Source of the DNA: Gemmatimonadota bacterium | Lineage (GTDB): Bacteria > Gemmatimonadota > Gemmatimonadetes > Longimicrobiales > Gaopeijiaceae | NCBI GenBank assembly: GCA_039589315.1 | Contig: JBDHHQ010000017.1 | Coordinates: 55,618 to 119,617, forward strand | Length of the DNA stretch: 64,000 nucleotides | Reading direction: 5' to 3' | Shown: piece after piece, positions 35,982 through 58,121 of the stretch | Layout of the letters: every line of letters starts with the position of its first letter | Numbering within the stretch: position 1 is the first letter of the stretch | Program-made: the position numbers and the translations under genes | The notes under the pieces: model-generated | Told to the model about the DNA's origin: nothing | The model's input: only the letters and a program-made list of their open reading frames with translations | Database searches by the model: none

Positions 35982-36869
35982 CTAGTTGAAGCTGACGGTC
36001 CCCACCCAGGGTGGACGCCACGGCGGACCGCCGTCCACCTCGAAGTCTCGTGCCACGGGCGCGAACTGGTCCGCAAGGAACCGGTATTCCCGCACGAGGC
36101 CTCGCAGGAACACCCGGTTCCTGATCTCCGAGACGGCCAGACTATCGGAGACGGTTAACGTCGCATTCTCCTGTACCCAGGCCTGTTCGTCGCCCGTGAA
36201 AAGGTCTACGAACACGCCCAGATCCGAGGCCAATCCGTCATGAAGCGCCGCGACGTCCTCAGCGTTCCTCGGGTCCGCCGCCTTGTGCAGTCGAAGCGCC
36301 GTGATCGCCCGAACGGACCCGAGGTATACGGCGATGTCGTGACTCGCCACTGCCGGCAGGGTCCCGTCGAAAGCGGTCAGGTGGTCGCGGGCGTCCCGCT
36401 CGTCCTCCTCGGTGAGGAAGGGGTTGGAGTCGAGGGCGTGGGTGTACGCCCACACGAGTCCGTGACCGTTGGCGCACAGCGCGCGGTCACGCTCGCTCGT
36501 GAGAACGTCACAGTCCATCGCATCCCAGAGCAGGGTGGCGTGGTTCTGCTGCTGGTAGGCCGTGAGCAGCATGGCCTGACGTACCCGCAGATGGTTCACG
36601 AGCACGGTCTGGTCGGGGTTCATCGCGATGATGCGCTCGAGCTTTTCGACCGGCTCCCTCCACTCGTCGCCCTGCTGGGACCTGGGCAGGTCCAGAGGCG
36701 GCTGGTCGACCAGAGCGGCGCTGTGCTCCGCCACCGTCGCCACCATGGCCGCGTTGGTGGTCTGGACGGCGTTCTCGACGTCCTTCTTCATGGCCAGGCA
36801 CGCGGAGCTCGCGAGAACCGGCAGGCAGAGCGCCGCGGCCAGGGCCCGGGTTCGAGAGTTCGTTCTCAT
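35982..36869 (-). CDS. Hypothetical helical protein, probable lipoprotein
   Basis: MRTNSRTRALAAALCLPVLASSAC lipobox-like leader; AGGAGG RBS; 13 bp after the upstream stop. Confidence 0.75.
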   Translation of the reverse strand: MRTNSRTRALAAALCLPVLASSACLAMKKDVENAVQTTNAAMVATVAEHSAALVDQPPLDLPRSQQGDEWREPVEKLERIIAMNPDQTVLVNHLRVRQAMLLTAYQQQNHATLLWDAMDCDVLTSERDRALCANGHGLVWAYTHALDSNPFLTEEDERDARDHLTAFDGTLPAVASHDIAVYLGSVRAITALRLHKAADPRNAEDVAALHDGLASDLGVFVDLFTGDEQAWVQENATLTVSDSLAVSEIRNRVFLRGLVREYRFLADQFAPVARDFEVDGGPPWRPPWVGTVSFN

Positions 36870-36882
36870 CGTGTTCCTCCTG

Positions 36883-42576: not shown

Positions 42577-42768
42577 TGAACGTCCTCCAAGCGACCCACC
42601 CCGGGAATGCCTCTCCGGGGTCGGATGATCGGGTAGTGGGTCCCCCACGATGCCGAGTGACCGCCACGGTCCGCAAGTCGGCCTTCTCGGGCTTTCACCC
42701 CTGCGGCCTCGAGGCCACGTTACGGGGCAAGGAGCGCGGGCGTGGTGCTTCAAGATGTAGATTGTTAG

Positions 42769-42782
42769 TTTAGTTAACTAAA
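42769..42782. promoter_or_regulatory. Perfect 14-bp AT-rich palindrome, candidate operator
   Basis: TTTAGTTAACTAAA in an AT-rich patch between the divergent cupin and padR genes. Confidence 0.55.
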
Positions 42783-42894
42783 TACGGCTAACAAAGGCGA
42801 GCGGACGGCGGGATCCCGGTGTGGCGGCCCTCGAAGCACCGCGCCGGTGTCGTCCGATCGACCGCTCGCGATCCCTCCGGAGATCGGTCGGTCC

Positions 42895-43221
42895 ATGGCG
42901 CGCAAATCCCTCGGCGACATCGAGCAGCTCGTTCTCCTGTCCATCCTGCGGCTCGGCAACGAGACGTACGGGGTGCCCATCGTAGAGGAGATCGAGAGCT
43001 GCGCGGGCAGGAGCGTGCCCCGAGCGGCGGTCTACATCGCGCTCCGGAGGTTGCGCCAGAAAGGGCTGGTTTCGTCCTGGATGTCCGAGCCCGATCCGGT
43101 ACCAGGCGGCAAGGCCAAGCGCTTCTTCAAGGTGGAGCCCGAGGGCATCGAGAAGCTCGCCGAGCAGCGGAGCGCGCTCTTGAGCATGTGGGAAGGGCTG
43201 CAGCCGACGTTGGACCGGTGA
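42895..43221 (+). CDS. PadR family transcriptional regulator
   Basis: LGDIEQLVLL, YGVPI, AVYIALRRL..KGLV and GGKAKRFF motifs. Confidence 0.9.
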   Translation: MARKSLGDIEQLVLLSILRLGNETYGVPIVEEIESCAGRSVPRAAVYIALRRLRQKGLVSSWMSEPDPVPGGKAKRFFKVEPEGIEKLAEQRSALLSMWEGLQPTLDR

Positions 43222-43276
43222 CAGCCGCATCCCGAGCCGGCCTGGGCAGAGATACGCACCGAGCGGGGAGCGAAGG

Positions 43277-45994
43277 GTGATGAGAGGCCCCCCGCCGGCG
43301 CGGTGGTTGTTGGAACGCGTCCTGCCGCCCGACGAACGGGTGGGGGTGGTCAACGAGTTGGACGAGGCCATGGATGCGGCCTTCCCGGAAGGGGGATGGC
43401 GAGCCGGCCTCTGGTACTGGGGCCAGGCGACGAGCTTCGCGCTGGGATTCGCAGTTGAGCGGTTGCGGGAACGTGCGGCGGGACCGGGATCTCCCGGGAG
43501 CCGACACGAGGAGCGTGAGGGGCGGCCTTCCGTGCGGAGGCCCAGACGACGGGAGGGGTGGATGGCGGGCTTGAGAAGAGACCTGGTCTTCGCCGTGCGG
43601 ACGTTGTTGAAGCGGCCCGCCTTCACGGCGGCCGTGGTCGCCACCCTGGCCCTGGGGATCGGGCCAAACACCGCCATCTTCAGCGTGGTCAACGGTGTGC
43701 TACTGCGTCCACTCCCCTACGCGAGCCCCGAGAGCCTGGCCCTGGTGCGGATCGATCTGAGCGGGCTGGAGCAACACCCAGGGATCGCCCAGGCCGAAGT
43801 GCTGGACTTCCGAGCACGCGCCGAGCTCTTGGAGGACGTCGGGGCGGTATCACGGGAGTTCACCGCCAGCCTCACCGCCGAGGGCCGGATGGAGGCGGTG
43901 CTGGCGGCCAACGTGACTCCCAACCTCTTCCCGATGCTGGGCGTGAGTCCGAGCCTCGGCAGGAGCTTCACCGCCGAGGAGGAGGTGCCGGATGGCCCCC
44001 GGGTCGCGCTCATCAGCCACGGGCTCTGGGAGCGACGCTTCGGGGGTGCACCGGACGTTGTCGGTCAGGACCTCGAGATGAACGGCACCCGGGTCCCCAT
44101 CGTCGGCGTCATGCCGGAAGGCTTCCAACTCCTCCTGGGTCCCGGGACCAGTCTGTCTCCGAACATCGACCTCTGGCTGCCCATGCAGCTGGACCCGGAG
44201 TTCCGCGACTTCTGGGCGTTCCGGGCCATAGCCCGCGTCGAGGACGGAGCCACCATCGCCCAGGCCGAAGCCGAGATCCAGTCCATCGGTGCCCGCCTCG
44301 TGGAGGAGTACCCGGACGAGTACGCGAACTCGGACATCAGGTTCTACCTGCATCCACTGCACAGCGATCTCGTGCAGAGTGCCCGGCCGGCCATCTTGAC
44401 GCTGCTCGGCGCGGTGACGCTGGTGCTCCTCATCGCGTGCACGAACGCCGCGGGCCTGCTGGTGGCGCGGATGAAGGCGCGGGAAAAGGAAATCGCGGTA
44501 CGCGCCGCGCTCGGGGCCGGGCGAAGCCGCATCGTTCGCGAGGTGCTGCTGGAGAGCCTGGTGTTGGCGTTCGTGGCGGGGGCCGCCGGCCTGGGACTGG
44601 GGTGGCTCGGTCTGGAGACGCTGCTGGCTTTCCAGCCGGGCAGCCTGCCCCGGGTGGACGACATCGTCCTGGACCGGCAGGTGCTGCTCTTCACCCTGGG
44701 AGCCGCCTCGCTCGCCGCGTTCCTGTTCGGGATGATCCCCGCGTGGCAGGCGTCGAAGGCGGACGTCCAGTCCGCGCTGAGAGAGGGGGGGCGCAGGGGG
44801 AGCGGAGGCGTGCGCGTCCGCACACGGAACGCGCTGGTCGTGGCCCAGGTGGCCTTCTCGGTGATGCTCCTGATCGGAGCGGGCCTGTTGATCCGCACCT
44901 TCAACGAGCTACGGCAGGTGGACCTGGGCTTCGATCCCGAGCATGTGGTCACCCTACGAGCACCACTGAACGGTGGCGAGCTGGAGCCCGAAGAGCGCTG
45001 GGGCATCTACAAGCAGCTCCTGGACGAGGTCCGGACCCTGCCCAACGTCGCGGCCGCGGGTGGCACGTCCATCATCCCCTTGAGCAACCAGGGCATGATG
45101 GCTTCCTACTCCACCGACGGCTCCCTGGACACGAACTGGAACGGCTCTTCGGCCGACTACCGGTGGGTCTTCCCGGGCTACTTCGCCACCATGGGCGTCG
45201 AGCTCGTCGCCGGCCGCACGTTCGACGCCGGCGACAACGACGAGCTCGTGGGTCGGGTGATCGTCGACGAGACGTTGGCCTGGCAGGCCTGGCCGAATGG
45301 AGACGCCATCGGCCAGCACTTCACCATCGGGATGGGCTCGGCGTTGGACACGACGCTGGTCGAGGTCGTGGGTGTGGTGTCCCACAGCCGGATCCTCGAC
45401 GTGCGCCGGGAGGTTCGGCCGCAGATCTACCTGCCCTACCGCACGGGACCCGGTGGGAACATGTGGCTGACGGTCAGGGCCGAGGGCGACGCCTCTCAGG
45501 TCGTAGCGTCCGTGCGCCGCGTCGCCGAGGCCGTGGGGACGGGCCGACCCGTCCACTCCGTGCGGTCAATGGAGTCGTATGTGGAGGAGGCCATGGCGGG
45601 CACCCGTTTCACCCTGCTCCTCATGGGCACCCTGGCGGGCATCGCGTTGCTCCTATCCGGCGTCGGCATCTACAGCGTCATCGCCTATCTGGTGCGCGAG
45701 CGGGCACACGACACCGGTGTCCGCCTGGCCCTGGGTGCGCAGCGGGTGGACATCATCCGCATGAACGTGAAGGAGGGGTTGGCCATGGCCGCGTTGGGCG
45801 TTCCGCTCGGCCTTGGCGGCGCCGTGGGTCTGAGCCGCTTCCTGGAAAGCCAGCTCTTCGGCGTGGACGCTACGGATCCTGTGACCTACGTCGGGATCCC
45901 GCTGGTCCTGGTGGCACTCGCCATCCTGGCCTCCTACATACCCGCGTCCCAGGCCAGCAAGCTGGATCCGGCGACAGCCCTCAGGGACGCCTGA
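43277..45994 (+). CDS. Duplicated orphan ABC permease (ADOP; 2x MacB-PCD/FtsX)
   Basis: DL.FA.R.L.K.P.F, LALGIG.NTAIFSVVNGVLLRPLPY, REKEIAVRAALGAGR, LVVAQVA.S and ASYIPA..A..LDP motifs; follows padR. Confidence 0.92.
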   Translation: MMRGPPPARWLLERVLPPDERVGVVNELDEAMDAAFPEGGWRAGLWYWGQATSFALGFAVERLRERAAGPGSPGSRHEEREGRPSVRRPRRREGWMAGLRRDLVFAVRTLLKRPAFTAAVVATLALGIGPNTAIFSVVNGVLLRPLPYASPESLALVRIDLSGLEQHPGIAQAEVLDFRARAELLEDVGAVSREFTASLTAEGRMEAVLAANVTPNLFPMLGVSPSLGRSFTAEEEVPDGPRVALISHGLWERRFGGAPDVVGQDLEMNGTRVPIVGVMPEGFQLLLGPGTSLSPNIDLWLPMQLDPEFRDFWAFRAIARVEDGATIAQAEAEIQSIGARLVEEYPDEYANSDIRFYLHPLHSDLVQSARPAILTLLGAVTLVLLIACTNAAGLLVARMKAREKEIAVRAALGAGRSRIVREVLLESLVLAFVAGAAGLGLGWLGLETLLAFQPGSLPRVDDIVLDRQVLLFTLGAASLAAFLFGMIPAWQASKADVQSALREGGRRGSGGVRVRTRNALVVAQVAFSVMLLIGAGLLIRTFNELRQVDLGFDPEHVVTLRAPLNGGELEPEERWGIYKQLLDEVRTLPNVAAAGGTSIIPLSNQGMMASYSTDGSLDTNWNGSSADYRWVFPGYFATMGVELVAGRTFDAGDNDELVGRVIVDETLAWQAWPNGDAIGQHFTIGMGSALDTTLVEVVGVVSHSRILDVRREVRPQIYLPYRTGPGGNMWLTVRAEGDASQVVASVRRVAEAVGTGRPVHSVRSMESYVEEAMAGTRFTLLLMGTLAGIALLLSGVGIYSVIAYLVRERAHDTGVRLALGAQRVDIIRMNVKEGLAMAALGVPLGLGGAVGLSRFLESQLFGVDATDPVTYVGIPLVLVALAILASYIPASQASKLDPATALRDA

Positions 45995-46059
45995 GGAGCG
46001 CGCGCGTTCGGTCGGCCGGCAGAGGTCGGTGGCTTCGGGGGCGGGCGGGCCCTCGAGGG

Positions 46060-48072
46060 TCACCGGAGCGACGACATGTCGTACATCGTCCCCGCGGCCA
46101 CCACCCACGCCCCCCTCCGGATAGCCGAGATGTCCCCGAGCGGGTCGGCGTCGAGCACGAGCAGGTCGGCGCGCTTGCCGGCCTCGACCGTGCCCACTTC
46201 CCCGTCCATGCCCAACACCCGGGCAGGGACGAGCGTCGCCGACCGGATCGCTTCCATGGGGCTGAGTCCCGCTTCCACGTAGAGCTCGAGCTCACGGAGC
46301 AGGCTGAAGCCGGGCACGCCCGCGTCAGTCCCGGCGACGATGGTGACACCGGCTTCGTGTAACCTCCGCACCAGGGAGAGGATCTCGGCCCTGCCGATCT
46401 GGACGGCGGAGGAGTCGCGGTCGCTGCCGGCGCTCTCGTAGTTCAGCGCCAGCGCTCCCGAGATCCGCTCGATGCCTGGCTCGAACCGGGCGATGGGTGT
46501 CTCGATCGAGCGCCCGAGCAGCTCGGACCAGACGACGGCCGGGCTGACGACCAGCCCGTGACGTCTCAGCGCTTCCACCGCGCCGGTAGGGTCGCCCGGT
46601 GGAGCACCCGCCAGGGCGTAGTGGAGGTGGGTCACGCCGCTCATCCCTGCCTCCATGGCTTCCTCCGTGGTCATGTCGGCCGGCACGTGGCCCGTCATGG
46701 TCATCCCGCGCTCATCGGCTCGCCGTTTCAGCGCACGGAGCACGTCGGCCCGGACCTGCCCGTAGACCTTGATCTGGACGAAGCCGACCTCGGCGTAGCG
46801 GTCGACCACGGCTCGTGCCTCGTCGGCCGTCGAGGCGGTAACCGCACCGAAGCCCAGCGAATCCTGGCCGTCCACCAGGCCGGCCAGGAGGAGTCTCGGC
46901 CCGATGCCCCGGCCCTCCTGGATCAGGTCCCGGAAGGCGGTCAAGAAACGCGCTTCGCCACCGACGTCACGGACGGTCGTGACGCCCGCGGCCAGGTACG
47001 CAGGTGCCCATTCGATCTGGCTCACGTGGCCGTGCATGTCCCACAAGCCGGGGATCACCGTCTTCCCGGTGGCGTCGATGCCGCGGACGCCGGCCGGCAG
47101 TTGCACCTCCGTGCTCGGGCCGGCCGCGGCGATGATTCCGTCGCGCACGACGATCGTGGCGTCCTCGATCGGGGAACCCCCGTTTCCGTCGATCAGTCGA
47201 GCGCCCAACAGGGCGAACGCACCGTCGGCCACGGACGAGACGGTTGCGGCCGTTCGCTCCAGGTCGTGCATGCGATCGCGGACCGCGGCGGTCTGAAGGT
47301 CTGGGAGCGCCTCGACCAGGTCCGACCGCACCGCTTGCAGCGGGAGGATGTGGATCCGGGAGATGAGCGCCGCGAACCGGCTCTGTTCGTCGAGCCACAC
47401 CGCCTCCCGGCCCCAGACGACACCGTCGACGGAGTAGCGCCGGAGCGCGACGACCCGCCGGCCCACCTGTACGGAGTCCACCCCACGGGGCTCGATCTCG
47501 ATCACGTCGCCGTCCCGCCCGGGAATGGCGCGAATGGCCGAGGGGCGGCCCTGTCGCTCCCAATAGGCGATCAGAACGGCCCGGCCGGACACGGGCGCGT
47601 AGGAGCGCACCGGGAAGGAATGCTCCGGACGAGGCAGATCCACCGAATCGCGGATGTTCTGTACGTAGACCGTCGAGTCGCCGTACTCCACCTCCACGTC
47701 CAGGTTGACGAAGCGGTAGGTGTTGCCGACGGCGCGGAAGTGACGGGGGGAGTAGTCGTCAGCGACCGCGAGTGAGCTCGTGACCCGGCCGCGGCTTCCA
47801 CGTTCCGTGTACTCGAGCTCCGCCGTGAGCCGAAGGCCTGCCTCCTCCGCTCGCAAGGTGAACCGCTCCTCGCCGATGGGACGCTCGATGTAGAAGACGC
47901 GGACGGTAGCGGAATCCGGCTCGAGCCCGACGGACGACGGGGCCTCGGCGCATCCGCCTCCGAGCAGAAGAAGCGGGACTGCCACGCCAGGGAGCCAAAC
48001 GCCCGCCGGCGGCGTCGGGAGAGCGAGATACCGGTACGTCCGCTCGGCGGTGGAGCGCTCGGCTGGGAGCAT
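46060..48072 (-). CDS. Amidohydrolase family protein with an extra N-terminal beta-rich domain, exported or lipoprotein
   Basis: IPGLWDMHGH, AGVTTVRD, GHVP, AGTD and GKRADLLVLDADP motifs; LLLLGGGC leader. Confidence 0.85.
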   Translation of the reverse strand: MLPAERSTAERTYRYLALPTPPAGVWLPGVAVPLLLLGGGCAEAPSSVGLEPDSATVRVFYIERPIGEERFTLRAEEAGLRLTAELEYTERGSRGRVTSSLAVADDYSPRHFRAVGNTYRFVNLDVEVEYGDSTVYVQNIRDSVDLPRPEHSFPVRSYAPVSGRAVLIAYWERQGRPSAIRAIPGRDGDVIEIEPRGVDSVQVGRRVVALRRYSVDGVVWGREAVWLDEQSRFAALISRIHILPLQAVRSDLVEALPDLQTAAVRDRMHDLERTAATVSSVADGAFALLGARLIDGNGGSPIEDATIVVRDGIIAAAGPSTEVQLPAGVRGIDATGKTVIPGLWDMHGHVSQIEWAPAYLAAGVTTVRDVGGEARFLTAFRDLIQEGRGIGPRLLLAGLVDGQDSLGFGAVTASTADEARAVVDRYAEVGFVQIKVYGQVRADVLRALKRRADERGMTMTGHVPADMTTEEAMEAGMSGVTHLHYALAGAPPGDPTGAVEALRRHGLVVSPAVVWSELLGRSIETPIARFEPGIERISGALALNYESAGSDRDSSAVQIGRAEILSLVRRLHEAGVTIVAGTDAGVPGFSLLRELELYVEAGLSPMEAIRSATLVPARVLGMDGEVGTVEAGKRADLLVLDADPLGDISAIRRGAWVVAAGTMYDMSSLR

Positions 48073-48402
48073 GGGTCAAGGGGCCGGGGTCGATGGGCCT
48101 GCTTCGTCGCGAGAGTCTACGAGAGAATCGTCGGGCCGTGCCGCGGCGAGCGCAACGCATCGCCGTGCACCGGCGTCGCCCTGACGAGCCCGGCGTTGCC
48201 CGGTGCACCTTCAGGGACCGGCTCGCCGCGGGACTCGGAGCCCGTTGCACCTCCCCGCAACCGCGGCGCCCTCGCTCGACTCCGCGCCCGTCCGGCGTCA
48301 GTGACTCGGCGCTCGCGGTGGCTCCGGGACTGCCGAGGCGCGACACTGGGTGCGAACAGGCGAACGGGGAACGTGCGACCAAGCGACCGAGAGGAGGAGA
48401 CG

Positions 48403-48738
48403 ATGCGGTGCCTCGAGATCGAGATCAACGGTCAGCGGGCTTGCGTAGCGGGCGTGGGCGCGCTGGGGGCCGTATCTGCCATGGTCACATGGGTGCGGTT
48501 CGAGCCCGAGGGCATGGAGGAGCCCGCTCCGGTCCCGTCCGGGAGCAACCTCCTCAGCATCACCGGAATCACGGAGGGCCTGGACAGCGTGCACTGGCTC
48601 GAGGTCCCCACCAGGCTGTCGGTGGGTGACGAGGTCACGATCCGGGTCGTCGACGCCGAGGACGCCGATCCATGGACGGTGACCCCGCAGCTCCCCGAGT
48701 CGCTGGCAGACGACACGTCCGAGGGCTCGGATGCTTGA
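48403..48738 (+). CDS. Small acidic hypothetical protein
   Basis: GAGGAGGAG RBS; MRCLEIEING..C.AG...W...L.VGDEVTIRVV, predicted beta-rich. Confidence 0.75.
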   Translation: MRCLEIEINGQRACVAGVGALGAVSAMVTWVRFEPEGMEEPAPVPSGSNLLSITGITEGLDSVHWLEVPTRLSVGDEVTIRVVDAEDADPWTVTPQLPESLADDTSEGSDA

Positions 48739-48857
48739 CAGCTCGGCGGTGCCGGCACCAAGTGTAGGCACCCCCAAGTGGCCGTCGTCCTCATGACGCT
48801 GGCCGCGCGCTCCCGCGCTACACCACCTCCCGACCTCACCCGGGGGAGAGCCCGTCG

Positions 48858-50885
48858 ATGAGCGACCTGCGCGAATTCTTCGAACAACTGGTCTATCACA
48901 GCGCCAGCCGTCGATTCACTCAACAGTCGCCCGTGATGCCCGACGTTTGGATCCGGTTCGGCACACAGCCGGGTCGTCAGCAAGAGCTGCTCATGGTGCC
49001 CGACTGGAACCACACCACGGCGGAGCTGGCCAGTGCCATGAAGGCGCGCATCGCCGCGGACGAGGAGTTTCAGGGCGCTGCCGTGTACCGCCACGCGAAC
49101 GGCGACACGGACACCGGTCCGGCCAGCGATGAGGAGTTGCCCGCGGCCCCGCGGCCCCCAGGGATCGCCCACAACCAGAACGTGGTGGTGGCCACGCTCT
49201 GGTTCGACCAGCTCGTACGGTCGGTTCTGCCTCTGAGCGCGTGGTGGCAGCGCTCCGTGGCGGGGGTTGTGAAGAGGAGCGACCGGGACCGCCTGGCGGA
49301 GGGACTGCGAGATCCGGAGGGGTTGGTCGGATGGATCGTCGCGGAGTGGGACGAGGACAACCGCGACGGCGCCTTCGGGCCAGACGTTCTGTGGGTCGCG
49401 CGGGTGGTGGGCGTCCTGGCCTTCCTGTCGACGGATGAGGGCGCGGCTCTGATGGACGGTCTCGAGCGGGACGACGACAAGGTCCGCGCGATCCGCCGGA
49501 TGATGAAGGAAGAGCCACAGAAGCTGGCCTGGGCCCTGGTCCGGCTTCTCGAGGACATCGACCCGGTGCGCTGGGGCGACGACGTGACGCTGTACTCGGT
49601 GAACCTGAATCGGCACACGTCCCAGGCCCTCGAGCGGTCCGGAGCGTCGGTCAAGGCCGACGCCGTCCGAAGGCTCTTCCAGTTGGGCGGGAGAGACGTA
49701 CGGTGGGCCGTCATCGATTCGGGCATCGACGCCACGCACCCGGCGTTCCGGCGCCGGGCAGAGGACGGCACGCCGATGCGGCGGCCGTTCGGGAGGCGAC
49801 GCCAGGCGGGCCGCCGACGCGGCGGGTCCAAGGAAACCTACAGGAACCAGACGCGGATCCTCGCAACCTACGACTTCGTCCACATCCGGGACCTCCTCGG
49901 GGCCGATCCGGACGATCTTGACCATCTGGCCGAGCTGTATCCCGCGGTCAAGGACGGGACGAAGAAGCGGGAGCTGGCCGAGTTCCTGCGGACGGCCGAA
50001 GAGCACGTCATCGACTGGCAGCGCCTGGAGCCCTTCCTGAGGGTCGAGCACAAGCCCGGAGCATACCGGCCGCCCCCCCATCCCCACGGCACTCACGTCG
50101 CCGGAATCATCGGAGCCGACTGGCGGGCGTCGGACGGAGATGCAGGGCTGGACACGCCGCCGCGTGGCGAGGACCTGGTGGGTGTCTCGCCGGAGATCCA
50201 GCTCTACGACCTTCGCGTCCTGGACGACAAGGGCAACGGCAACGAGTTCGCCATCATGTCCGCCATGCAGTTCGCCCGCGACCTCAACAGCCGGCGGGAC
50301 TTCGTGGCCGTCCACGGCGTCAATCTCAGCTTCTCCATCGACCACGACGTGGCCAACTATGCGTGTGGCCGCACGCCGGTCTGCGAGGAAGCCGAGCGGC
50401 TGGTCGGCAGCGGCATCGTAGCCGTGGCGGCCGCGGGCAACAGCGGACGGGCCCGCTACCTCACGCCCGCCAACACCCTCGACGAGGGCTTCCGTACCGT
50501 GAGCATCACGGACCCGGGCAATGCCCAGGCCGTCATCACCGTGGGCGCCACGCACCGGAGTGACCCCCACACCTACGGTGTGAGCTACTTCTCGAGCCGC
50601 GGCCCAACAGGCGACGGCCGACTGAAGCCGGACCTGGTGGCGCCGGGCGAGAAGATCCGGTCCGCGGTGCCCGGGGGTGGAGAGGACCGGCTCGACGGCA
50701 CCAGCATGGCCGCACCACACGTCAGCGGAGCGGCGGCGCTCATCCTCTCGCGCCACCCCGAGTTCATCGGCAAGCCGGCGAAGCTCAAGGAGATCCTGTG
50801 CAGCACGGCCACCGACCTGGGGAGGGAGCGGTACTTCCAGGGCGCGGGTCTGCTCGACATCCTGCGGGCGCTCCAGTCTATCTGA
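48858..50885 (+). CDS. S8 (subtilisin-like) serine peptidase without a signal peptide, with an unknown N-terminal region
   Basis: Triad AVIDSGID / HGTHVAGII / GTSMAAPHV; oxyanion AAGNSG; SSRGPT.DGR.KPDLVAPG. Confidence 0.93.
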   Translation: MSDLREFFEQLVYHSASRRFTQQSPVMPDVWIRFGTQPGRQQELLMVPDWNHTTAELASAMKARIAADEEFQGAAVYRHANGDTDTGPASDEELPAAPRPPGIAHNQNVVVATLWFDQLVRSVLPLSAWWQRSVAGVVKRSDRDRLAEGLRDPEGLVGWIVAEWDEDNRDGAFGPDVLWVARVVGVLAFLSTDEGAALMDGLERDDDKVRAIRRMMKEEPQKLAWALVRLLEDIDPVRWGDDVTLYSVNLNRHTSQALERSGASVKADAVRRLFQLGGRDVRWAVIDSGIDATHPAFRRRAEDGTPMRRPFGRRRQAGRRRGGSKETYRNQTRILATYDFVHIRDLLGADPDDLDHLAELYPAVKDGTKKRELAEFLRTAEEHVIDWQRLEPFLRVEHKPGAYRPPPHPHGTHVAGIIGADWRASDGDAGLDTPPRGEDLVGVSPEIQLYDLRVLDDKGNGNEFAIMSAMQFARDLNSRRDFVAVHGVNLSFSIDHDVANYACGRTPVCEEAERLVGSGIVAVAAAGNSGRARYLTPANTLDEGFRTVSITDPGNAQAVITVGATHRSDPHTYGVSYFSSRGPTGDGRLKPDLVAPGEKIRSAVPGGGEDRLDGTSMAAPHVSGAAALILSRHPEFIGKPAKLKEILCSTATDLGRERYFQGAGLLDILRALQSI

Positions 50886-50898
50886 ACCAGGGGGAACG

Positions 50899-52104
50899 AT
50901 GTCGAAGGTCTTCTCGTTGGAGGCGGTGTTCGCGAAGAAGGGCGACGCCCTGATCCTCCACTACGGCTCGTGGGAGAACCCGCGGTGGATTCTCATCGAC
51001 GGTGGGCCGGGAGGCGTCTACAACGACTACCTGCGGCCTCGGCTCGAGCAGATCCGCGAGGACTTCGAGATCGACGCCAACAAAGCGATCCCTTTCGAGA
51101 TGGTCATGGTCAGCCATATCGACGACGACCACATCAACGGGATCCTCCAGCTCTTCGACGACCAGGAAGATGCCGTCGACCGGCGGAAGCGCCGGCCCTA
51201 CCGCATCGGCACGCTCTGGCACAACAGCTTTGACGACATCCTGGGCAACGAAGAGGACGAGATCGTATCCAGGCTGGCAGCCGTGGCCGCCGGTGAGGAA
51301 GCGGGGGGCCTGGAGCTCCCCGCCGGAATGAGCCCCGAGGCCCGTGCCGTCGTGGCGAGCACACGGCAGGGTCGCAACCTCCGGCGGCAAGCGCGAAAGC
51401 TCCAGCTGGACATCAATGCGCCGTTCGAGGGTCTGGTGATGGCGCCGGCCGAGCGGAAGCTGCCGCTGAAGGAGGGGCTCGATCTCACCGTCCTGGGGCC
51501 GCTCCTGAAGAACGTGGAGGACTTCCGGAAGCGTTGGGACAAAGACCTGAAGAAGATCCTCGAGAAGGAGTCGGCGAGCACCCGCGCCGCCTCGTTTTCC
51601 GACGGATCTCCCTTCAACCTGGCGAGCATCTCCGTTCTCGCCGAGCTGGACGGCAAGACCATGCTGCTCACCGGCGACGCCCGCGGCGACTTCCTGCTCG
51701 AGGGACTCGAGGAGCTCGGCCTCTTGAGGCAGGATCGACCCATGAAGGTGGACCTGCTGAAAGTCCCGCACCACGGCAGCGACCGGAACGTGACCGTGGA
51801 CTTCTTCCGGCGCATCCCGGCCCGGCATTACGTGATCTCGGGAGACGGGGAGCACGGCAATCCCGAACGGGCAACCCTCGACATGATCGAAACTGCCCGG
51901 GCTGATGACGACTACACGATCCACTTCACCTTCACCGAGACGGCCCACGAGACGGAGGAGGACGAGGAGCGGCGACACGCCCTGGAAAGGGTGGCAGCCT
52001 GGGTGCAACAGCGGCCACGGAACTGCACCGTGGTGTTTCGGGAGGATCTGGAGGAGGTGTACTCCGTGATCGTGGATCTGTTGGATCCCCTGTACGACGA
52101 CTGA
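50899..52104 (+). CDS. MBL-fold metallo-hydrolase (ComEC/Rec2-like, Avs1a-like)
   Basis: A.KGDALIL, ILIDGG, SHIDDDHING, LLTGDA, KVPHHGS..N and HGNP motifs; 13 bp after the S8 stop. Confidence 0.9.
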   Translation: MSKVFSLEAVFAKKGDALILHYGSWENPRWILIDGGPGGVYNDYLRPRLEQIREDFEIDANKAIPFEMVMVSHIDDDHINGILQLFDDQEDAVDRRKRRPYRIGTLWHNSFDDILGNEEDEIVSRLAAVAAGEEAGGLELPAGMSPEARAVVASTRQGRNLRRQARKLQLDINAPFEGLVMAPAERKLPLKEGLDLTVLGPLLKNVEDFRKRWDKDLKKILEKESASTRAASFSDGSPFNLASISVLAELDGKTMLLTGDARGDFLLEGLEELGLLRQDRPMKVDLLKVPHHGSDRNVTVDFFRRIPARHYVISGDGEHGNPERATLDMIETARADDDYTIHFTFTETAHETEEDEERRHALERVAAWVQQRPRNCTVVFREDLEEVYSVIVDLLDPLYDD

Positions 52105-52107
52105 GGC

Positions 52108-52971
52108 CTACTTCACCTCCCGCCAGAACACGAACTTGATGCGACGGAAGGTCAGCGAGTTCAGCCCCACGAAGGCGGGGTCGTTGGCCGTGTAGCACCG
52201 GGGCATCGTGTTCGCGTCTCCCTGGACGCTGAACTCGACGGCGTGCCGGGCCACGACCTCTCGTTCGAGGGCCTGGGACAGACCGGGCTCGCTATGCCCC
52301 ACGAACTCCCAGGTAGTCCCCACTTCGGGGTCGTTGGGGTCCTCCACGACGGGGCATCCCGACTCGGGCGGATAGATCCAGCGGCGGTCCTGCCCCGGCG
52401 GCAGCCATTCGACGGTGCCGACGGCGAAGGCCTCATCGATCTGAGGCGCTCCGAGCACTCCGGCGGGAATGGTGTCGGAGCGTGAGACCTCGACCCAGAT
52501 GGCGACCGTCGAGTCGTTGAAGACATCCGGGAGGGTGAAGAACCCGAGGGACGCCTCGGTATTCAAGTTCTCCCACGGCTCGTCCACGATCTCGACCGGG
52601 GTGAACTCGAAGATCAGGGAGTCCTGCACGACCGCAACCGCGCGCGGGTCGCGCGCCCCGTCCAACACCACCACCAAGGCCGAGTCGCTGGCGGTCCCGC
52701 CCGGTCCTTCCACGTCGAACACGTACAAGGTTGTCTCCTCGGGGCGCACCACCACGGTGCCGTTGACCAGCGAGTGCCCCGGCGGCTCCACCCCACCGTG
52801 GTCCGCGTGGGTGCTGTTCAGGTGCAGCGCCACGTGCTCGCCCGGCGCGACCGTGTCGGGAACCGCGACGATCGCAGCCGTGGGCGGCTCGATGGGGTCG
52901 ACCACCTCGTCGAACTGGGAACAGGCGCCGAGACATGCGCCCACGATCAGCAATGCCCAGGGGTGCCTCAT
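52108..52971 (-). CDS. Lipoprotein with an N-terminal Ig/PKD-like domain
   Basis: LGAC lipobox; PTA.I.A.P.TV.PG....L...S..A....G...V.P.ETT.Y.....GPGGTAS....V.V pattern. Confidence 0.75.
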   Translation of the reverse strand: MRHPWALLIVGACLGACSQFDEVVDPIEPPTAAIVAVPDTVAPGEHVALHLNSTHADHGGVEPPGHSLVNGTVVVRPEETTLYVFDVEGPGGTASDSALVVVLDGARDPRAVAVVQDSLIFEFTPVEIVDEPWENLNTEASLGFFTLPDVFNDSTVAIWVEVSRSDTIPAGVLGAPQIDEAFAVGTVEWLPPGQDRRWIYPPESGCPVVEDPNDPEVGTTWEFVGHSEPGLSQALEREVVARHAVEFSVQGDANTMPRCYTANDPAFVGLNSLTFRRIKFVFWREVK

Positions 52972-52983
52972 CTGGGTGCTCCG

Positions 52984-54114
52984 TCAGAATGTGACCGCGA
53001 GGGACAGTGACGGCGTCAACCCGAAGCTGGGGAACGTCGTGTCGGTCCCTTCACGCCGTTCGGTCGACGGGTCTCGCGGTCCCAGGAACCGGTTGTGGGT
53101 GGAGACCTGGAAGTCCAGACCGAGGACCACGTGCCACTTGCCGAGCGTTCGCAGCCGGGGCCCGACCGTGATGCCGTACGCTCGCTCCACCCAGGCGTCG
53201 AAGTTGCGCAGGTTCTCCCACGCCGCGGCCAATCCGGCCGAGATGCCCCACCAATCGTAGTTGGGGTAGTACGTGACGTTGCCCGCCAAGAGGGTCTGGC
53301 TGTGCCCGTGATCCGGTTGGATGTCACTCGAGGCCGACGGTCGGCCGCCCCCCATCAGGGTGAAGTGCCACCGTCGCCGGTGACGGAGCACCAGGGCCAG
53401 CGTCGCGCCCGAGAAGGTCTTCCCTCCGGTCCTGAGCGCCATGAATCCGCCCTGGAGGCCGACCCGCAACGTGGAATCGGGCTTCGCGAGCTGAGTCGTG
53501 GGTGCCAGGCGCTCCGTGACGTAGGCGACCGCTACGGTATCTCCAGCTTCCCCCGTCTGCTCCAGCCACCACAGCATCTGGTCGACCAGTTGGCCGGCGT
53601 AGACCGTATCGCTCACGGTGATCGAATCCAGCGTGGAGATGGGAATGGGGACGAAGACGGTTTCCACACGGGCCGGAGAGGCGTCCCCCTCGCTCTCGAC
53701 TCTCACTTGCATCGAGACCGCAACGTCCTGCAGGGCGTTCACCAGACCGTAGCAGTCCTGCTGAGGCACGGAATCCGGGGGTTGTGCCACACCCCCGACG
53801 GCGAACGTGGTGGTCGGACCGATCTGCCTGTACTCACGGCCGACGATGCCCCGGAAGGCGATCTGGTCGGGTGCACGGGATTCAGGGAGCTCGACCCACC
53901 ACGCGTCGTCTGCTTGATACCTCGCTTCCACCTCGACGGAATCCGCGAAGACCGCGGTCAGGGTGGTCGCACCGGGGATGCCCGGTCCGCCGAAGAGGCG
54001 CATCAGAACCCAATCAACCGGAGTGGTCTGGTCGCAGGACTGGCCCGCGAGAGGCGCCGCTGTGACCATGGCGAGAACGCACGCAAGCGGAAGCGAACGG
54101 GACGGCTTGTGCAT
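52984..54114 (-). CDS. Exported protein with a C-terminal small outer-membrane beta-barrel
   Basis: Signal peptide (PLAG-Q); about eight alternating-pattern beta strands in the last ~165 aa; ends LSLAVTF, a BAM-type terminal Phe. Confidence 0.7.
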   Translation of the reverse strand: MHKPSRSLPLACVLAMVTAAPLAGQSCDQTTPVDWVLMRLFGGPGIPGATTLTAVFADSVEVEARYQADDAWWVELPESRAPDQIAFRGIVGREYRQIGPTTTFAVGGVAQPPDSVPQQDCYGLVNALQDVAVSMQVRVESEGDASPARVETVFVPIPISTLDSITVSDTVYAGQLVDQMLWWLEQTGEAGDTVAVAYVTERLAPTTQLAKPDSTLRVGLQGGFMALRTGGKTFSGATLALVLRHRRRWHFTLMGGGRPSASSDIQPDHGHSQTLLAGNVTYYPNYDWWGISAGLAAAWENLRNFDAWVERAYGITVGPRLRTLGKWHVVLGLDFQVSTHNRFLGPRDPSTERREGTDTTFPSFGLTPSLSLAVTF

Positions 54115-54173
54115 GGCGTACCCCGCATTGGACTGGCGAGAGGTAGCTCCGTTGGCCACGCGCGGGATCGCCC

Positions 54174-56960
54174 TCACGATTCGCCGCGGTCCGCGATGGC
54201 GAACGTCACGGCGACCCGTAGCCGCACGTCGACGGGGGTCCCGTTGAGCGTACCAGGGTTGAACCTCCACTCGCTGACTGACTCACGCGCCGCCGTGGCG
54301 AGAACGCCGAGCCCGTCCGGCGCGGTCGCCCCCAACACGGTCACCTCGCCGTTCGTGCCGATGAGGGCCTCCACGTCCACCACGCCTTCGAGGTCCCTGC
54401 CTTCGCTCGGGTAGAGGAGGTCCGGGCGATACCTGAGCGTCGGGGCCTTGAATACCCCCGGCTTGCTGGGATCCTCGAAGGTGAAGGGCCCGGGGGCCAC
54501 GATGCCACCCGTCCTCGATCCCTGGCCTGCGACCTTCAGCGCGCGGATCGAGTCCAGGATCTCCAGGTGGCCTTCTCCGAGCTCCCGCTCGATTCCGGCG
54601 ACCCGCTCATTGAACCGTCGGGCTGCCCGTTCCACCCCGTCGGGAGTATCCTCGGGAAGATCCCCTCCCTCGCTCATGGCCATCGCGGCCGCGAGGACCA
54701 GCCACGGGGAAGGACCGCCGTCGTCCCCCGCCAGTGCCGCGATGCGGTCGCCGAGGGCGGTCTGGCCGTGGAGCAGCGTGTCCCGCACCTGGTCCAGCTC
54801 GCCAGTCCCCGTGATAGATGCAGGAGCCCGGAGGATCGAGTCCTGAAGCTCGGCAAGCGTGGCGATACGGGCGTCGAGGGCTGCCTGGATCACGAGGAGC
54901 GATTCCCCCAACTGCTCGAGGGCCACGGACCGCGATGAGGCTGAGCCCGCCCCGTCGATCTGATCGTTCGCGTAGTCGAACACCTGTCCGGGCCGACCCA
55001 GGAAGTGCGCCTGCAGCAGGAGACGGGCCAGGTCCGGGGTCACGGTCAGGTCAGTCGGGAGGACGCCACCTCGTTCGCGGAGGTCTCTCTCCTGCCGCAG
55101 AAGCTGCTCGAGCTCGGCGTCGTCGACGGGCACAGCCCCTGTTATGAAAGGCCTGAAGAGCTGGTCCCGGCGCAGGTCCGTGAGCTCCAGGTCGACGGAG
55201 GTCCCACCGGCCAGGACTTGGCGCTGAAGCTCGGTCAGGGTCGGGGCGAGGCTGTCGGGTATCCGTGCGGCCGACGCTACCCCCATCTGGTAGGGGAGCA
55301 GCAGGACTCTGGCCAGGTCCGGGGTGAGCCGGACCGAAAGCGTATCCGGGTCTCCGCGGAGCCCCCGCTCGAGGTCGTCGATGCCGCCAGGGTCCAGCCC
55401 CCGGCTGCCCGGAATCACGCCGATCATGTACGGCACGTAGAGGTAGCGAATCCGCTCGGCATCGACCCGCACCACGATGGGATCCCGGCCGCGCCAGAGC
55501 TCGCGTTGGAGGACCCGGATGAGCTCGTCGATACCGGTGCCGGTGGGAGCGGGCTCTCCGCCATTGTCCGGCCCCTCGCCCGGCCGCCCGTTCTCGTCGG
55601 CGTCCATCGGCCGGGTCGCGCCTCTCGTCCCCTCGGGACCAACAAGCGTAGGGCCGCCGCCCACCTCGGTTGGGGGGGGCGTACCCCCGCCGTTCGGCTC
55701 GATGGGATCGCTCCACGCGATCTTCTCGCGCAGCAGGCCCAGGATCGCCTCCTGATTCTCCAGCGTGCCCAGATCGGCCAGGAGCTCCCGCAGGACCTCT
55801 TCGCGGGTTTCCGGGCCCGTGGCCCTCTCTCCGCCGGGTATTCCAGCTTGGGCGGCGAGGGCGTCGAGGATCTCCTGCGTACGGTCGGGGCTTTCGCTGA
55901 AGACGGCCAAGAGGATGGCCCGGCGGAGGTCGTCGTCAGGCCAAGCGGCGAGCACCGGGTCGGTGTCCTCGACCGTCCTGTCGGGAGCCGTCAACACGTG
56001 CCAGACCGTATCGGCTCCAGGCTCCCAGGTTTCCAGGAGGGAAGCGAGAAAGGTCACACGGTCCCGCGTCAGCCGCATGTCGCTCAGGAGGTCGTAGGCC
56101 AGCTGCTCCGGGAATATGCTTCGGGCGTCCCCCGACCGTGCCGGAGCGCCGCCAGCTTCGGGTGGCACGGTGTTGCACTCAGCGAAGTCGATGGTGGCGA
56201 CCCGGGCGCCAGCGCAGAGGAAGCTCCGGAGCCCGTCCCGCACCTGCGGTGCGGTGGCGACGCCGGTCAGAACGGCCGCGGTGACGCCGGCCGTGATCAG
56301 CGCGGCGGCGCCGGGGCCCATCTCCGCCAGGCTCTCGACGGTGGCCCGGCCCGCCTCCTTCGGCCAGCGCATCGGGTTGTCCTTGAACGCCGCCCACCAA
56401 CCGAACCCCCCGAGAATCAGTAGACCCGCGCGCAGCTTCCCCTTGTCCCGGATCACGTAGCCCTCCTCCGCGAGGGCCTCGACGACGCCGTCGACGATCT
56501 CGTTGGGGCTCTTCCCTTCTCTCTTCAAAGCCCCGCTCACCTCGAGCGCCTTCTCCACCTTCTGCGCGAGATCGAGGGACTGATGCTCCTCGAGGATGGG
56601 GGTCAGGGGTGTGTCATCGCCCTTGATGGGCACCAGCGGCGCATCGGGCTTGTGTCGGTGGAAGAACTCGTACTCCTTGCGCACCCAGTCGGATTGGGCG
56701 GAGCGGTGAGTCCAGTAGATCATCAGACCGTCGGCCTTCTCGAGGCCGGCGCCTAGAGACGGCTTCCATTTCCTCCCGAGCTTGATGCTCCGGTGATCGT
56801 GAAACACCTGGTGGCCGAATGCCTCCAGGAGCTTGCCGATACCGTCGATTCGATCTCGGTCCGGGGTGCTGTAAGAGATGAAGACGTTGTTGATGAACGG
56901 CTGACTCTCGCCGTAGACCTTGTACGACTCGTTTGGCGAGCCGAAGGTGGAATCATCCAT
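54174..56960 (-). CDS. TIR-domain membrane protein with a C-terminal TonB_C domain (928 aa)
   Basis: N-terminal VFISYS..D...VFHD...I..G..W...SDWVRKE; hydrophobic segments; C-terminal YP......EGVV.VE.LI.TNGEV......AA.ESV.EWRFNP...NG.PV.V...V.VTF; GGAGGAG RBS. Confidence 0.85.
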   Translation of the reverse strand: MDDSTFGSPNESYKVYGESQPFINNVFISYSTPDRDRIDGIGKLLEAFGHQVFHDHRSIKLGRKWKPSLGAGLEKADGLMIYWTHRSAQSDWVRKEYEFFHRHKPDAPLVPIKGDDTPLTPILEEHQSLDLAQKVEKALEVSGALKREGKSPNEIVDGVVEALAEEGYVIRDKGKLRAGLLILGGFGWWAAFKDNPMRWPKEAGRATVESLAEMGPGAAALITAGVTAAVLTGVATAPQVRDGLRSFLCAGARVATIDFAECNTVPPEAGGAPARSGDARSIFPEQLAYDLLSDMRLTRDRVTFLASLLETWEPGADTVWHVLTAPDRTVEDTDPVLAAWPDDDLRRAILLAVFSESPDRTQEILDALAAQAGIPGGERATGPETREEVLRELLADLGTLENQEAILGLLREKIAWSDPIEPNGGGTPPPTEVGGGPTLVGPEGTRGATRPMDADENGRPGEGPDNGGEPAPTGTGIDELIRVLQRELWRGRDPIVVRVDAERIRYLYVPYMIGVIPGSRGLDPGGIDDLERGLRGDPDTLSVRLTPDLARVLLLPYQMGVASAARIPDSLAPTLTELQRQVLAGGTSVDLELTDLRRDQLFRPFITGAVPVDDAELEQLLRQERDLRERGGVLPTDLTVTPDLARLLLQAHFLGRPGQVFDYANDQIDGAGSASSRSVALEQLGESLLVIQAALDARIATLAELQDSILRAPASITGTGELDQVRDTLLHGQTALGDRIAALAGDDGGPSPWLVLAAAMAMSEGGDLPEDTPDGVERAARRFNERVAGIERELGEGHLEILDSIRALKVAGQGSRTGGIVAPGPFTFEDPSKPGVFKAPTLRYRPDLLYPSEGRDLEGVVDVEALIGTNGEVTVLGATAPDGLGVLATAARESVSEWRFNPGTLNGTPVDVRLRVAVTFAIADRGES

Positions 56961-57515
56961 CGATTCGATCTCCTCCGGGGTTCAGTTGCCCGGCCAGCGA
57001 TGCGACCCCGGACCCTCCAGGACCAGCGTCGTGCCGTCAGCCCGACCGGGGCCGATGCCGCTGGAGAGGTCGAAGGTCGCTCGGGAATCCGTACGGAGCT
57101 TATCCAGGAACGCCATGAAGGGCTCCCTGCGGGGGCACACGAAAAGACCTCCAGGAGCCCATCAGAACGCGAGGGGGGGAGAGCGTCGGCGGGCGCTCGG
57201 AGGAAAGCGAAGCAGCGTCTGTAGGACAAGCATAGGGGGCTCGGCCCCGGGACCGCAAACACTTTTTTCCGCTCGGCCCCGCGTATCTCCGCCCGCGATC
57301 CGGCCCCAGCGGGCACCGGCCATCCCCCCCGAACCTGGCCCGATGCACCGGACGAGCGCGTGTCCGCGGAGCATCTCCCACAAGCACTACCGGTGGATCC
57401 CCGATACCCGTGCCGCCTGGCGCGCGCCGACATTTGAGGCGCAGGCACGGCTGCCCCGGGCACCTCTCCCGTCGACCCGGCCGGCAGGGACCGGCGGCCT
57501 GCGGAAGGAGGGAGC

Positions 57516-57938
57516 ATGAGCGTCGGTAGGATCGCTGTCCGCGCGGTGTCCACGGGGTATCCCGCCGAGTCGGTGCGCGCGGCGGCCAAACGGATGAAGG
57601 CCCACGGCGTGGGCGCCACGGTCGTGATCGACGATGACGTCCGCCCCATCGGGATCGTGACCGACCGGGACGTGACCCTTCGGTGCGTCGCCGAGGAGCG
57701 GGATCCGGACCTGACCCAGCTCGGCGACATCATGAGCACGCCGGTGAGCGCCGTCACCGAAGACACGCCCATCGAGACCGCTCTGTCGATGATGGCCACC
57801 GTGGAGGCACGCAGGATGATCGTGACCAGCGATGACGGACGGTTGACGGGTATCCTGACCGTGGACGACTTCCTGGAGCTGGCGGTCGAGGAGTTCGACG
57901 CCATCGGCACGCTGATCGGCAAGCAGGCGCCGGCGTAG
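57516..57938 (+). CDS. CBS-pair domain protein
   Basis: AA..M....VG..VV....PIGIVTDRD and DIMS.PV...GILTVDD motifs; GGAGGG RBS. Confidence 0.9.
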   Translation: MSVGRIAVRAVSTGYPAESVRAAAKRMKAHGVGATVVIDDDVRPIGIVTDRDVTLRCVAEERDPDLTQLGDIMSTPVSAVTEDTPIETALSMMATVEARRMIVTSDDGRLTGILTVDDFLELAVEEFDAIGTLIGKQAPA

Positions 57939-58121
57939 AGGTCAAGGACCCCCCTCGCTGGTCCTCGCCGTTCGACGCGGCCCGGTGGCGCCGCAGGGAG
58001 GTCTCGTTCCCGCGCACCAATCTTCCGTTTAGGGGAACAGCCCGGTTGCGGGGGGTCCGGTCCGGTGGAACCGGGTCGTACCGAGCCGGGGCAGGTGAGA
58101 TGTGGGGCCTGCGGGCATATG

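Follow-up and report, generated by a model that had tools for sequence, protein, structure and literature searches.

A candidate trans-envelope TIR-TonB_C system with a swapped allele in a Gemmatimonadota genome

A 64,000-nucleotide stretch of a Gemmatimonadota genome (contig JBDHHQ010000017.1, positions 55,618 to 119,617; hereafter the window) carries three adjacent genes, of which the first joins an N-terminal TIR domain through a membrane segment and a long acidic helical stalk to a TonB C-terminal domain (TonB_C), the second encodes an outer-membrane barrel, and the third a predicted lipoprotein. Our preferred reading, held tentatively and at somewhat less than an even chance, is that of a trans-envelope, non-energised tripwire spanning the periplasm, in which a disturbance would cluster the TIR domains and trigger NAD+ cleavage; the coupling, the trigger and the role in immunity we infer. 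The divergent version of the locus found at the same spot in a congener suggests a fast-changing, undescribed envelope-spanning alarm.

The three open reading frames (ORFs) lie on the minus strand at 54174-56960 (928 residues), 52984-54114 (376 residues from ATG) and 52108-52971 (287 residues), and the co-orientation and gaps of 59 and 12 bp given in an earlier note on this DNA were confirmed. The source genome (G000) is a metagenome-assembled genome (MAG) with 5% contamination, and G012 is its only congener among the family genomes searched; there the start of gene 2 overlaps the stop codon of gene 1. DNA loci of the fusion come from G000 and G012 only, and P0038, P0039, P0009, P0013 and P0036 were compared as protein sequences. 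P0002 and P0006 are the gene 1 proteins of G000 and G012, and P0001 is gene 2 of G000. The features of the locus are as follows.

54174..56960, minus: gene 1, TIR, membrane segment, acidic helical stalk and TonB_C, 928 residues (Pfam; relatives P0006, P0038 and P0039 with both domains)
56553..56885, minus: TIR domain, residues 26-136, W92 and E96 invariant in 4/4 members (Pfam, alignment, AbTIR match)
56385..56429, minus: short hydrophobic segment 1, residues 178-192, probably interfacial or re-entrant (hydropathy and flanking K/R, 4/4 members)
56256..56312, minus: likely single transmembrane helix, residues 217-235, rich in small residues, with A-x-x-x-G and no His (hydropathy, alignment)
54981..55493, minus: about four 47-residue stalk repeats, common to P0039 and absent from the G012 allele (repeat search, alignment)
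54195..54482, minus: TonB C-terminal domain with the preceding conserved motif, residues 827-922 (Pfam; 37-51% identity among four members)
52984..54114, minus: gene 2, signal peptide, N-domain, linker and predicted 8-stranded outer-membrane barrel ending in Phe, 376 residues (AlphaFold2, structural matches)
53695..54042, minus: gene 2 N-domain, residues 25-140, two invariant Cys, no known family, allele-variable (model, alignments)
52987..53469, minus: gene 2 barrel, residues 216-376, 81-84% identical among three lineages (model, alignments)
52108..52971, minus: gene 3, predicted lipoprotein (Cys17), 287 residues, no known family, 85-87% among three homologues (leader, Pfam null, alignment)
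53660..57076, minus: allele-swapped cassette relative to G012, gene 1 with the 5' part of gene 2 (blastn, junction alignments, synonymous divergence, genome control)
56982..57116, minus: 44-codon ORF, in frame with gene 1 and one TGA ahead of it, at the left swap junction (junction alignment)

Both terminal domains of gene 1 proposed in the earlier note are borne out by significant Pfam matches, TIR_2 at residues 26-136 (E 7.9e-17, 62.3 bits; cut-off 28 bits) and TonB_C (PF03544) at residues 855-921 (E 8.2e-10, 39.4 bits; cut-off 24.6 bits), and both domains exceed these cut-offs in all four family members, P0002, P0006, P0038 and P0039. The TonB model TIGR01352 matches gene 1 at 18.6 bits, under its cut-off of 27.1 bits. 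The glutamate said to be kept in a WVxxE motif is present as W92-V-R-K-E96, and WVRxE is invariant in 4/4 members. The nearest solved sequence to this TIR domain is AbTIR (PDB 7uwg, E 1.1e-4), with which the W-x-x-x-E motifs align. The glutamate of the aligned motif we take to be the catalytic position of TIR NADases; with the TIR fold and a conserved Glu on helix C, the domain is predicted to be enzymatic, of the NADase type. In PADLOC and NCBIfam, models of ThsB, SAVED-TIR and TIR-APAZ gave weak matches over the TIR part only. In P0038, three hydrophobic segments precede the TIR domain (residues 1-215), which may be a frameshift-fused upstream membrane gene or a real extension.

The order of elements is kept in all four proteins: W-V-R-x-E, a short hydrophobic segment, a loop of 24-25 residues, a second hydrophobic segment and the motif preceding TonB_C, with 128-586 residues between the last two. 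Hydropathy was scored in 19-residue and 15-residue windows; residues 217-235 are the only stretch of gene 1 with membrane-helix hydropathy in the former (1.79), segment 178-192 reaches 1.57 in the latter, and residues 755-767 give no peak in either. Thus, of the three hydrophobic segments originally described, one is of helix grade, one is weaker, and a third membrane helix at 755-767 was rejected, having no hydropathy peak and no counterpart seen in 2/4 members. Charged residues, used as a proxy for topology in the four members, are biased in the same way in each: K/R number 4-6 over the 15 residues that lead up to segment 1, 3-5 in the loop and 1-2 over the 15 residues that follow segment 2. 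Under the positive-inside rule K/R-rich flanks stay cytoplasmic, and we therefore read the region as one N-in helix preceded by an interfacial segment 1. The charge bias favours a TIR domain inside and a stalk with TonB_C outside, as had been proposed; the two conserved hydrophobic segments weigh the other way.

The stalk has a net charge of -45 and about four 47-residue repeats near residues 490-660, so its description as acidic and repetitive holds; Pro/Gly-rich sequence is limited to residues 420-480 and the remainder is mostly Leu-rich. A Cys pair is present (Cys249/262), but a post-helix pair occurs in only 2/4 members, and it was dropped as a conserved family feature. There is no His in the gene 1 helix of any of the four members, whereas the helix of the canonical TonB of G000, whose gene lies downstream of exbB-exbD-exbD in one operon, has one. 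TonB and TolA bind their motors through an SHLS motif, according to the available part of PMC12204202. A motor-driven TonB role for gene 1 was rejected, the helix lacking the SHLS His and the adjacent barrel being unplugged; TonB_C is best read as a tether because the helix has no His and the neighbouring barrel is 8-stranded and plug-free. G000 also holds a 1006-residue frame (G000:C22:6515-9532, minus strand) with an internal TonB_C after a hydrophobic segment and then a long helical and beta region, which is another non-canonical TonB_C fusion in this genome.

Gene 2 begins with a signal peptide by hydropathy and ends in Phe. In the AlphaFold2 model its residues 216-375 form an 8-stranded barrel in which most 10-residue blocks have a predicted local distance difference test score (pLDDT) above 85 and the loops 52-67; a separate beta domain at about residues 23-131 has pLDDT near 90, and the linker is of low confidence. 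The best structural matches are the barrels of OprF, NspA, CarO and OmpW (Z 12.5-13.8), with Foldseek in agreement and the OprF barrel 4rlc at the top (Z 13.8, root-mean-square deviation 3.0, 126 aligned). The earlier assignment of a signal peptide and a small barrel ending in Phe thus stands, with an 8-stranded model and OprF-type matches. Neither gene 2 nor gene 3 has any Pfam, NCBIfam or PADLOC match. Profile searches with the N-domain gave no match, and fold searches with gene 2 were filled by the barrel. Since this N-domain also heads P0013 and P0036, where it precedes tetratricopeptide repeats and a different outer-membrane barrel, it can be regarded as a mobile module of barrel proteins. 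A complex prediction of TonB_C (residues 826-924, 4 alignment rows) with gene 2 residues 25-213 (5 rows) scored 0.23, 0.48 and 0.20 against a mark of 0.32, with the controls not folded.

The wider barrel family (29 representatives) carries varied N-domains, several of them with a motif that by eye we take to be OmpA-C-like and that has no Pfam match. D/E-T/S-V-x-V strands are repeated just before the barrel, for example at residues 150-200 of P0001 and 135-190 of P0011; they presumably resemble TonB boxes, a pattern that is common. In two relatives the N-domain is carboxypeptidase-regulatory-like (E 1.7e-4 and 2.9e-5, below cut-off), and the available text of PMC12204202 connects domains of this type with TonB contact in Bacteroides. 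Two further genomes, G278 and G223, possess a barrel of this family; in both, the barrel gene is directly followed by a lipoprotein-like gene from a different family, and in G278 the gene upstream of the barrel gene encodes a membrane protein without a Pfam match. The G278 locus (L020:1-3566, G278:C134) holds the membrane protein, the same-family barrel and a TolB-like propeller lipoprotein in a tight row; the arrangement in three parts matches that of genes 1-3, with other inner and outer partners.

Gene 3 has a hydrophobic leader followed by L-G-A-C17, which we take to be a lipobox. Leader and Cys17 agree with the lipoprotein claimed previously; its Ig/PKD-like label could not be confirmed: at E up to 5, 3/3 homologues matched no Pfam family, and there were 0 PDB sequence matches. 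Weak similarity was seen to unannotated beta modules of the barrel relatives P0035 (probability 31%) and P0033 (E 7e-5).

The locus was compared with its counterpart in G012. Two collinear stretches, 42760-53658 and 57033-57941 of the window, match G012 at 84-87% DNA identity, and between them, from 53658 to 57033, the blastn collinearity is lost. In five flanking genes identity is 86-98% and synonymous divergence (dS) 0.29-0.50, whereas amino-acid identity within the interval is 50% in the TIR domain, 32% in the membrane part, 23% in the stalk (barely above shuffled scores), 38% in TonB_C and 39% in the barrel N-domain. There dS is 1.13-2.23, a range inflated and unreliable in the poorly aligned parts and based on good alignment in TIR and TonB_C, and fourfold-site identity is 0.36-0.42 against 0.64-0.78 in the flanks. 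Values in the gene 2 linker lie in between (62%, dS 1.17), and identity recovers to 84% in the barrel (dS 0.63). As a genome control, gene calling on 221 kb of the ~5.8-Mb G012 gave 124 genes; the flanks were syntenic for 58 of them, and for 55 the orthologue stands at the corresponding place in G000. The median identity of these 55 is 87.7%; gene 1 ranks last (33%, over 40% of its length) and the gene above it reaches 69.5%, so that 1/55 falls below 60%. Because selection on the protein does not raise dS, one lineage took the segment from a distant allele, and gene 1 with the barrel N-domain (~53660-57076) is a swapped cassette, exchanged together.

The right junction is graded and lies within the gene 2 linker at ~53660. 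The left one is sharp: the first 13 codons of G012 gene 1 equal the start of the 44-codon ORF of the window, and 192 bp (56885-57076) absent from G012 hold a TGA and the new gene 1 start in the same frame. The 44-codon ORF is separated from gene 1 by one TGA and 7 codons; readthrough would extend the TIR protein N-terminally, and a recombination stub is more likely than a readthrough leader. One homologous and one abrupt junction resemble the outcome that homology-facilitated illegitimate recombination would leave. No insertion sequence ends, terminal repeats or consensus promoter were found around the cassette, and GC content at third codon positions (GC3) is 0.81-0.84, like the flanks.

A third barrel protein, P0009 (71% overall), is equidistant from the other two in the barrel (131-136/161 identical). 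Its N-domain falls into a class with that of P0001 (72/112, 64%), the two being 38 and 34/105 identical to that of G012 (32-36%). The stalks of P0002 and P0039 are homologous (score 228, shuffle maximum 70) and that of P0006 is not; P0039 shares with G000 gene 1 the stalk repeats and its closest TonB_C (51%). The outer loops of the barrel are identical at 42-45/56 residues and the lipoprotein at 85-87% among three homologues, like ordinary genes. Thus it is the stalk, TonB_C and the N-domain that vary; all three are predicted to be periplasmic, and the diversity would lie inside the envelope. This location supports a link between genes 1 and 2 and a conflict role, and the conserved outer loops and lipoprotein argue against barrel or lipoprotein as a diversifying phage-adsorption sensor; the barrel surface loops in particular were rejected as such a sensor at 42-45/56 identity.

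The fusion family is rare. Among 150 other family genomes searched with gene 1, nine matched and one (G012) had TIR and TonB_C in one frame. A single-sequence search returned as its only full-length match the near-identical copy P0004 (925/928 identical), and a profile built from G000 and G012 gene 1 retrieved P0038 (672 residues) and P0039 (843 residues), with 5 matches from 8000 candidates. A TIR-membrane profile matched 14/401 phylum genomes, 13 of them over the TIR part only; on plasmids 3 matches were obtained, each confined to TIR, and the top one is a TIR gene that stands alone; viral contigs scanned with the TIR-membrane alignment gave 58 stretches, 0 confirmed. The barrel profile matched 4/251 family, 4/401 order and 2/401 class genomes (samples overlap), and the gene 2 N-domain profile 2/314 family genomes. 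Metagenome contigs scanned with the lipoprotein and barrel alignments gave 147 and 470 stretches, 0 confirmed; genome contigs scanned with the barrel alignment gave 34, of which 1 was confirmed, a G012-type locus. As a lead only, an ESM Atlas cluster annotated DUF8082/TIR/TonB_C (score 0.81) has 84 members, commonest in Acidobacteriota, with TIR_2 in 92% and TonB_C in 99%; it shares both domains with gene 1 and differs in its length of 482 residues and the extra DUF8082. Four further TIR_2 genes occur in G000 (contigs C23, C53, C192 and C225), 0/4 fused to TonB_C.

Several known systems share part of this anatomy. FecA-FecR-FecI pairs an outer-membrane protein bearing a periplasmic N-domain with a single-pass inner-membrane protein with cytoplasmic output, and genes 1 and 2 would be alike in this respect; however, genes 1-3 and the scanned neighbours hold no 22-stranded transporter, FecR domain or extracytoplasmic function (ECF) sigma factor, and the output would be an enzyme domain. 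Bacterial TIR NADases (AbTIR; ThsB; TIR-SAVED/STING, Pycsar and SPARTA; TIR-TM of E. coli) share the TIR_2 fold and W-x-x-x-E. Unlike Thoeris, CBASS, Pycsar and SPARTA, the gene 1-3 operon, to which this comparison was confined, has no nucleotide sensor, cyclase, Argonaute or ThsA-type partner, and in contrast to the TIR NADases of defence the putative sensor of gene 1 would be periplasmic. The TonB and TolA systems (ExbBD-TonB, TolQRA-Pal) are alike in the membrane helix, the periplasm-spanning region and the C-terminal TonB_C, and TolA also in its helical stalk (PMC12204202, available part). Gene 1 differs in the predicted cytoplasmic TIR before the helix, the missing SHLS His, the absence of motor genes from the operon and an allele-variable stalk of 128-586 residues in the family. 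TonB energy transducers partner plugged 22-stranded transporters with a TonB box, whereas the gene 2 barrel is 8-stranded and plug-free (elsewhere-encoded partners aside). The M56 peptidase-TonB proteins of Bacteroides (BT0813, BT3898) also join TonB_C through the membrane to a possible signalling domain, and the accessible text of PMC10350073 proposes that these uncharacterised fusions act in signal transduction; gene 1 adds a TIR domain with the catalytic-position Glu, a dedicated barrel and lipoprotein follow it, and the locus is polymorphic. Finally, animal Toll-like receptors are single-pass proteins whose TIR lies in the cytoplasm and whose outside part is variable and contains repeats (PMC7075850, in the portion available), but the TIR of gene 1 is N-terminal, giving the opposite orientation, and there are no leucine-rich repeats and no homology outside TIR, so that the likeness is one of analogy only.

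A literature search that covered few subscription journals found no description of a TIR-TonB fusion and no mention of 'DUF8082', and 'TonB' occurs 0 times in the available main text (supplements aside) of PMC7075850, PMC11350192, bioRxiv 10.64898/2025.12.03.692087, PMC8195603 and PMC7159879. The earlier statement that no described system has this architecture accords with the literature searched. The newness we would claim rests on the anatomy, for which no described counterpart was found, and the function is putative.

In the mechanism that we propose, gene 1 would be a single-pass inner-membrane protein with a cytoplasmic TIR NADase domain and a periplasmic acidic helical stalk ending in TonB_C, which may grip the periplasmic N-terminal part of the barrel protein by beta-strand addition, as the TonB family and the joint exchange lead us to suppose. 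TonB_C binds its partners in this way according to the part of PMC12204202 available. TonB_C would act as a tether rather than a motor arm, the 8-stranded barrel having no plug to pull, and barrel and lipoprotein would form a conserved outer anchor. A phage ejection conduit, predator or competitor proteins, or a lost outer-membrane attachment could bind or displace the stalk or tether; the membrane helices would then cluster, the TIR domains assemble and NAD+ be cleaved, so that the cell is arrested or a signal made. Lineages exchange whole alleles of the predicted periplasmic parts, a pattern to be expected of conflict genes. A bolder version, which we consider doubtful, is a polymorphic Toll-like device in which a non-energised TonB_C clamp on the dedicated barrel would sense intrusion into the periplasm before foreign nucleic acid enters the cytoplasm, and fire the TIR domain, with matched lock-and-key alleles setting specificity. 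Of the Toll-like coupling to an outer-membrane event first suggested, the functional link gains from the joint exchange, the activation of TIR we infer, and phage-adsorption sensing is opposed by the conserved outer loops and lipoprotein.

A number of observations weigh against the tripwire. The barrel and lipoprotein genes stand beside the fusion, three genes in order, in 2/2 loci with DNA, but these are two syntenic congeners only, and no TIR-TonB_C fusion was found in 2/2 other genomes with the barrel family (G278 and G223, whose barrel loci lie near contig ends and whose completeness is 89 and 97%), so the expected co-occurrence is weak. Just one pairwise comparison of alleles with DNA is at hand. 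If segment 1 were a true second helix, TonB_C would be cytoplasmic; P0002 and P0039 have in common a helix of mild hydrophobicity near residue 755; and the full-length AlphaFold2 model of gene 1 (2-row alignment) has a mean pLDDT of 37.6 and is unusable beyond the TIR and TonB_C folds. The window is no defence island, its 33 further ORFs in the Pfam scan being metabolic, regulatory, transport or unassigned apart from one neighbouring pair described below, and in PADLOC and NCBIfam the only defence-system matches of genes 1-3 fall on the TIR domain.

Among the alternatives, a non-immune envelope platform, which we think unlikely, would be a barrel-lipoprotein operon with interchangeable inner-membrane partners, TIR giving an envelope-stress or adaptor output and the variation reflecting modular shuffling and no arms race. 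The many different N-domains of the barrel family, the other membrane protein upstream in G278 and the other lipoprotein-like families downstream in G278 and G223 are in its favour, as is the fusion of TonB_C to many other domains, such as the 1006-residue frame of G000 and the uncharacterised M56 peptidases (PMC10350073, available part); however, the catalytic-position Glu is kept in 4/4 members, and whole-gene replacement in place with saturated synonymous sites would be unusual for a housekeeping envelope gene (1/55 below 60%). The joint exchange of two parts in classes, with barrel, outer loops and lipoprotein equidistant at 75-87%, would also fit a self/non-self locus, in which TonB_C and stalk form a lock-and-key pair with the barrel N-domain and TIR is triggered when outer-membrane exchange or gene transfer brings in a partner that is not cognate. 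Polymorphic kin-recognition receptors and het loci are known (PMC3820747 and PMC10890737, in the parts available). We rate such allorecognition as improbable, and give its likeness to fungal incompatibility or TraA-type kin discrimination the same low standing: no outer-membrane exchange machinery turned up, without a search aimed at it, only two alleles have DNA, and simple physical linkage also gives joint exchange.

A slim chance is left to gene 1 acting alone. It would then be a TIR defence gene, mobile and anchored in the membrane, whose insertion by recombination ahead of a barrel operon unrelated to it carried part of gene 2 along; the protein might be a hairpin of two helices with both termini in the cytoplasm. 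Two hydrophobic segments are conserved in 4/4 members, the swap appears to have an illegitimate left and a homologous right junction, and E. coli has TIR-TM defence systems that consist of a single gene (PMC11350192, text available in part). Against this, the hairpin would place a loop with 3-5 K/R outside, and homologous recombination inside gene 2 implies a donor with gene 1 directly upstream of the same barrel gene, from which it would follow that the pairing of gene 1 and barrel predates the swap. An assembly chimera or gene-calling artefact, suggested by a MAG with 5% contamination and by the lack of a full-length relative on the first single-sequence search, has a negligible probability. 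The same architecture stands at the same locus in G012 and recurs in P0038 and P0039, which refutes a chimeric assembly and upholds the fusion as first read; moreover, P0004 (925/928 identical) comes from a different contig, and GC3 is like that of the flanks.

Two genes converge on the operon from the other side.

48858..50885, plus: subtilase (S8), convergent neighbour (Peptidase_S8 E 1.5e-43; PADLOC subtilase E 3e-45; 89% in G012)
50899..52104, plus: metallo-beta-lactamase (MBL)-fold hydrolase resembling defence-system MBLs, convergent, its stop 3 bp from gene 3 (PADLOC LmuA E 2.5e-50; NCBIfam Avs1a E 2.4e-46, below its cut-off)

This S8/MBL pair (48858-52104, plus strand), convergent on gene 3 with 3 bp between the stops, looks like a two-gene defence or conflict module. 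It is conserved at 89% in G012, and a search with this MBL as query returned none in G278 or G223. A small ORF at 48295-48738 (plus), without a family match, lies within a 530-bp stretch (48159-48688) missing from the collinear G012 locus. Elsewhere in the window, a Prismane/CO-dehydrogenase family gene at 6176-8055 (plus) appears to be divided between two reading frames (profile positions 2-401 and 419-513), which would suggest a frameshift or an assembly error, and two adjacent ORFs of ~326 and ~652 residues at 35985-38841 (minus) have no Pfam match.

The two natural alleles at one locus make the tripwire idea directly testable as a 2 x 2 matrix of cognate and non-cognate pairs. To our knowledge, the described bacterial TIR systems are triggered by cytoplasmic cues. 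If the idea is true, an event at the envelope can set off NAD+-based immunity in bacteria, and TonB_C would gain a role as a signalling clamp, which bears on many uncharacterised TonB fusions.

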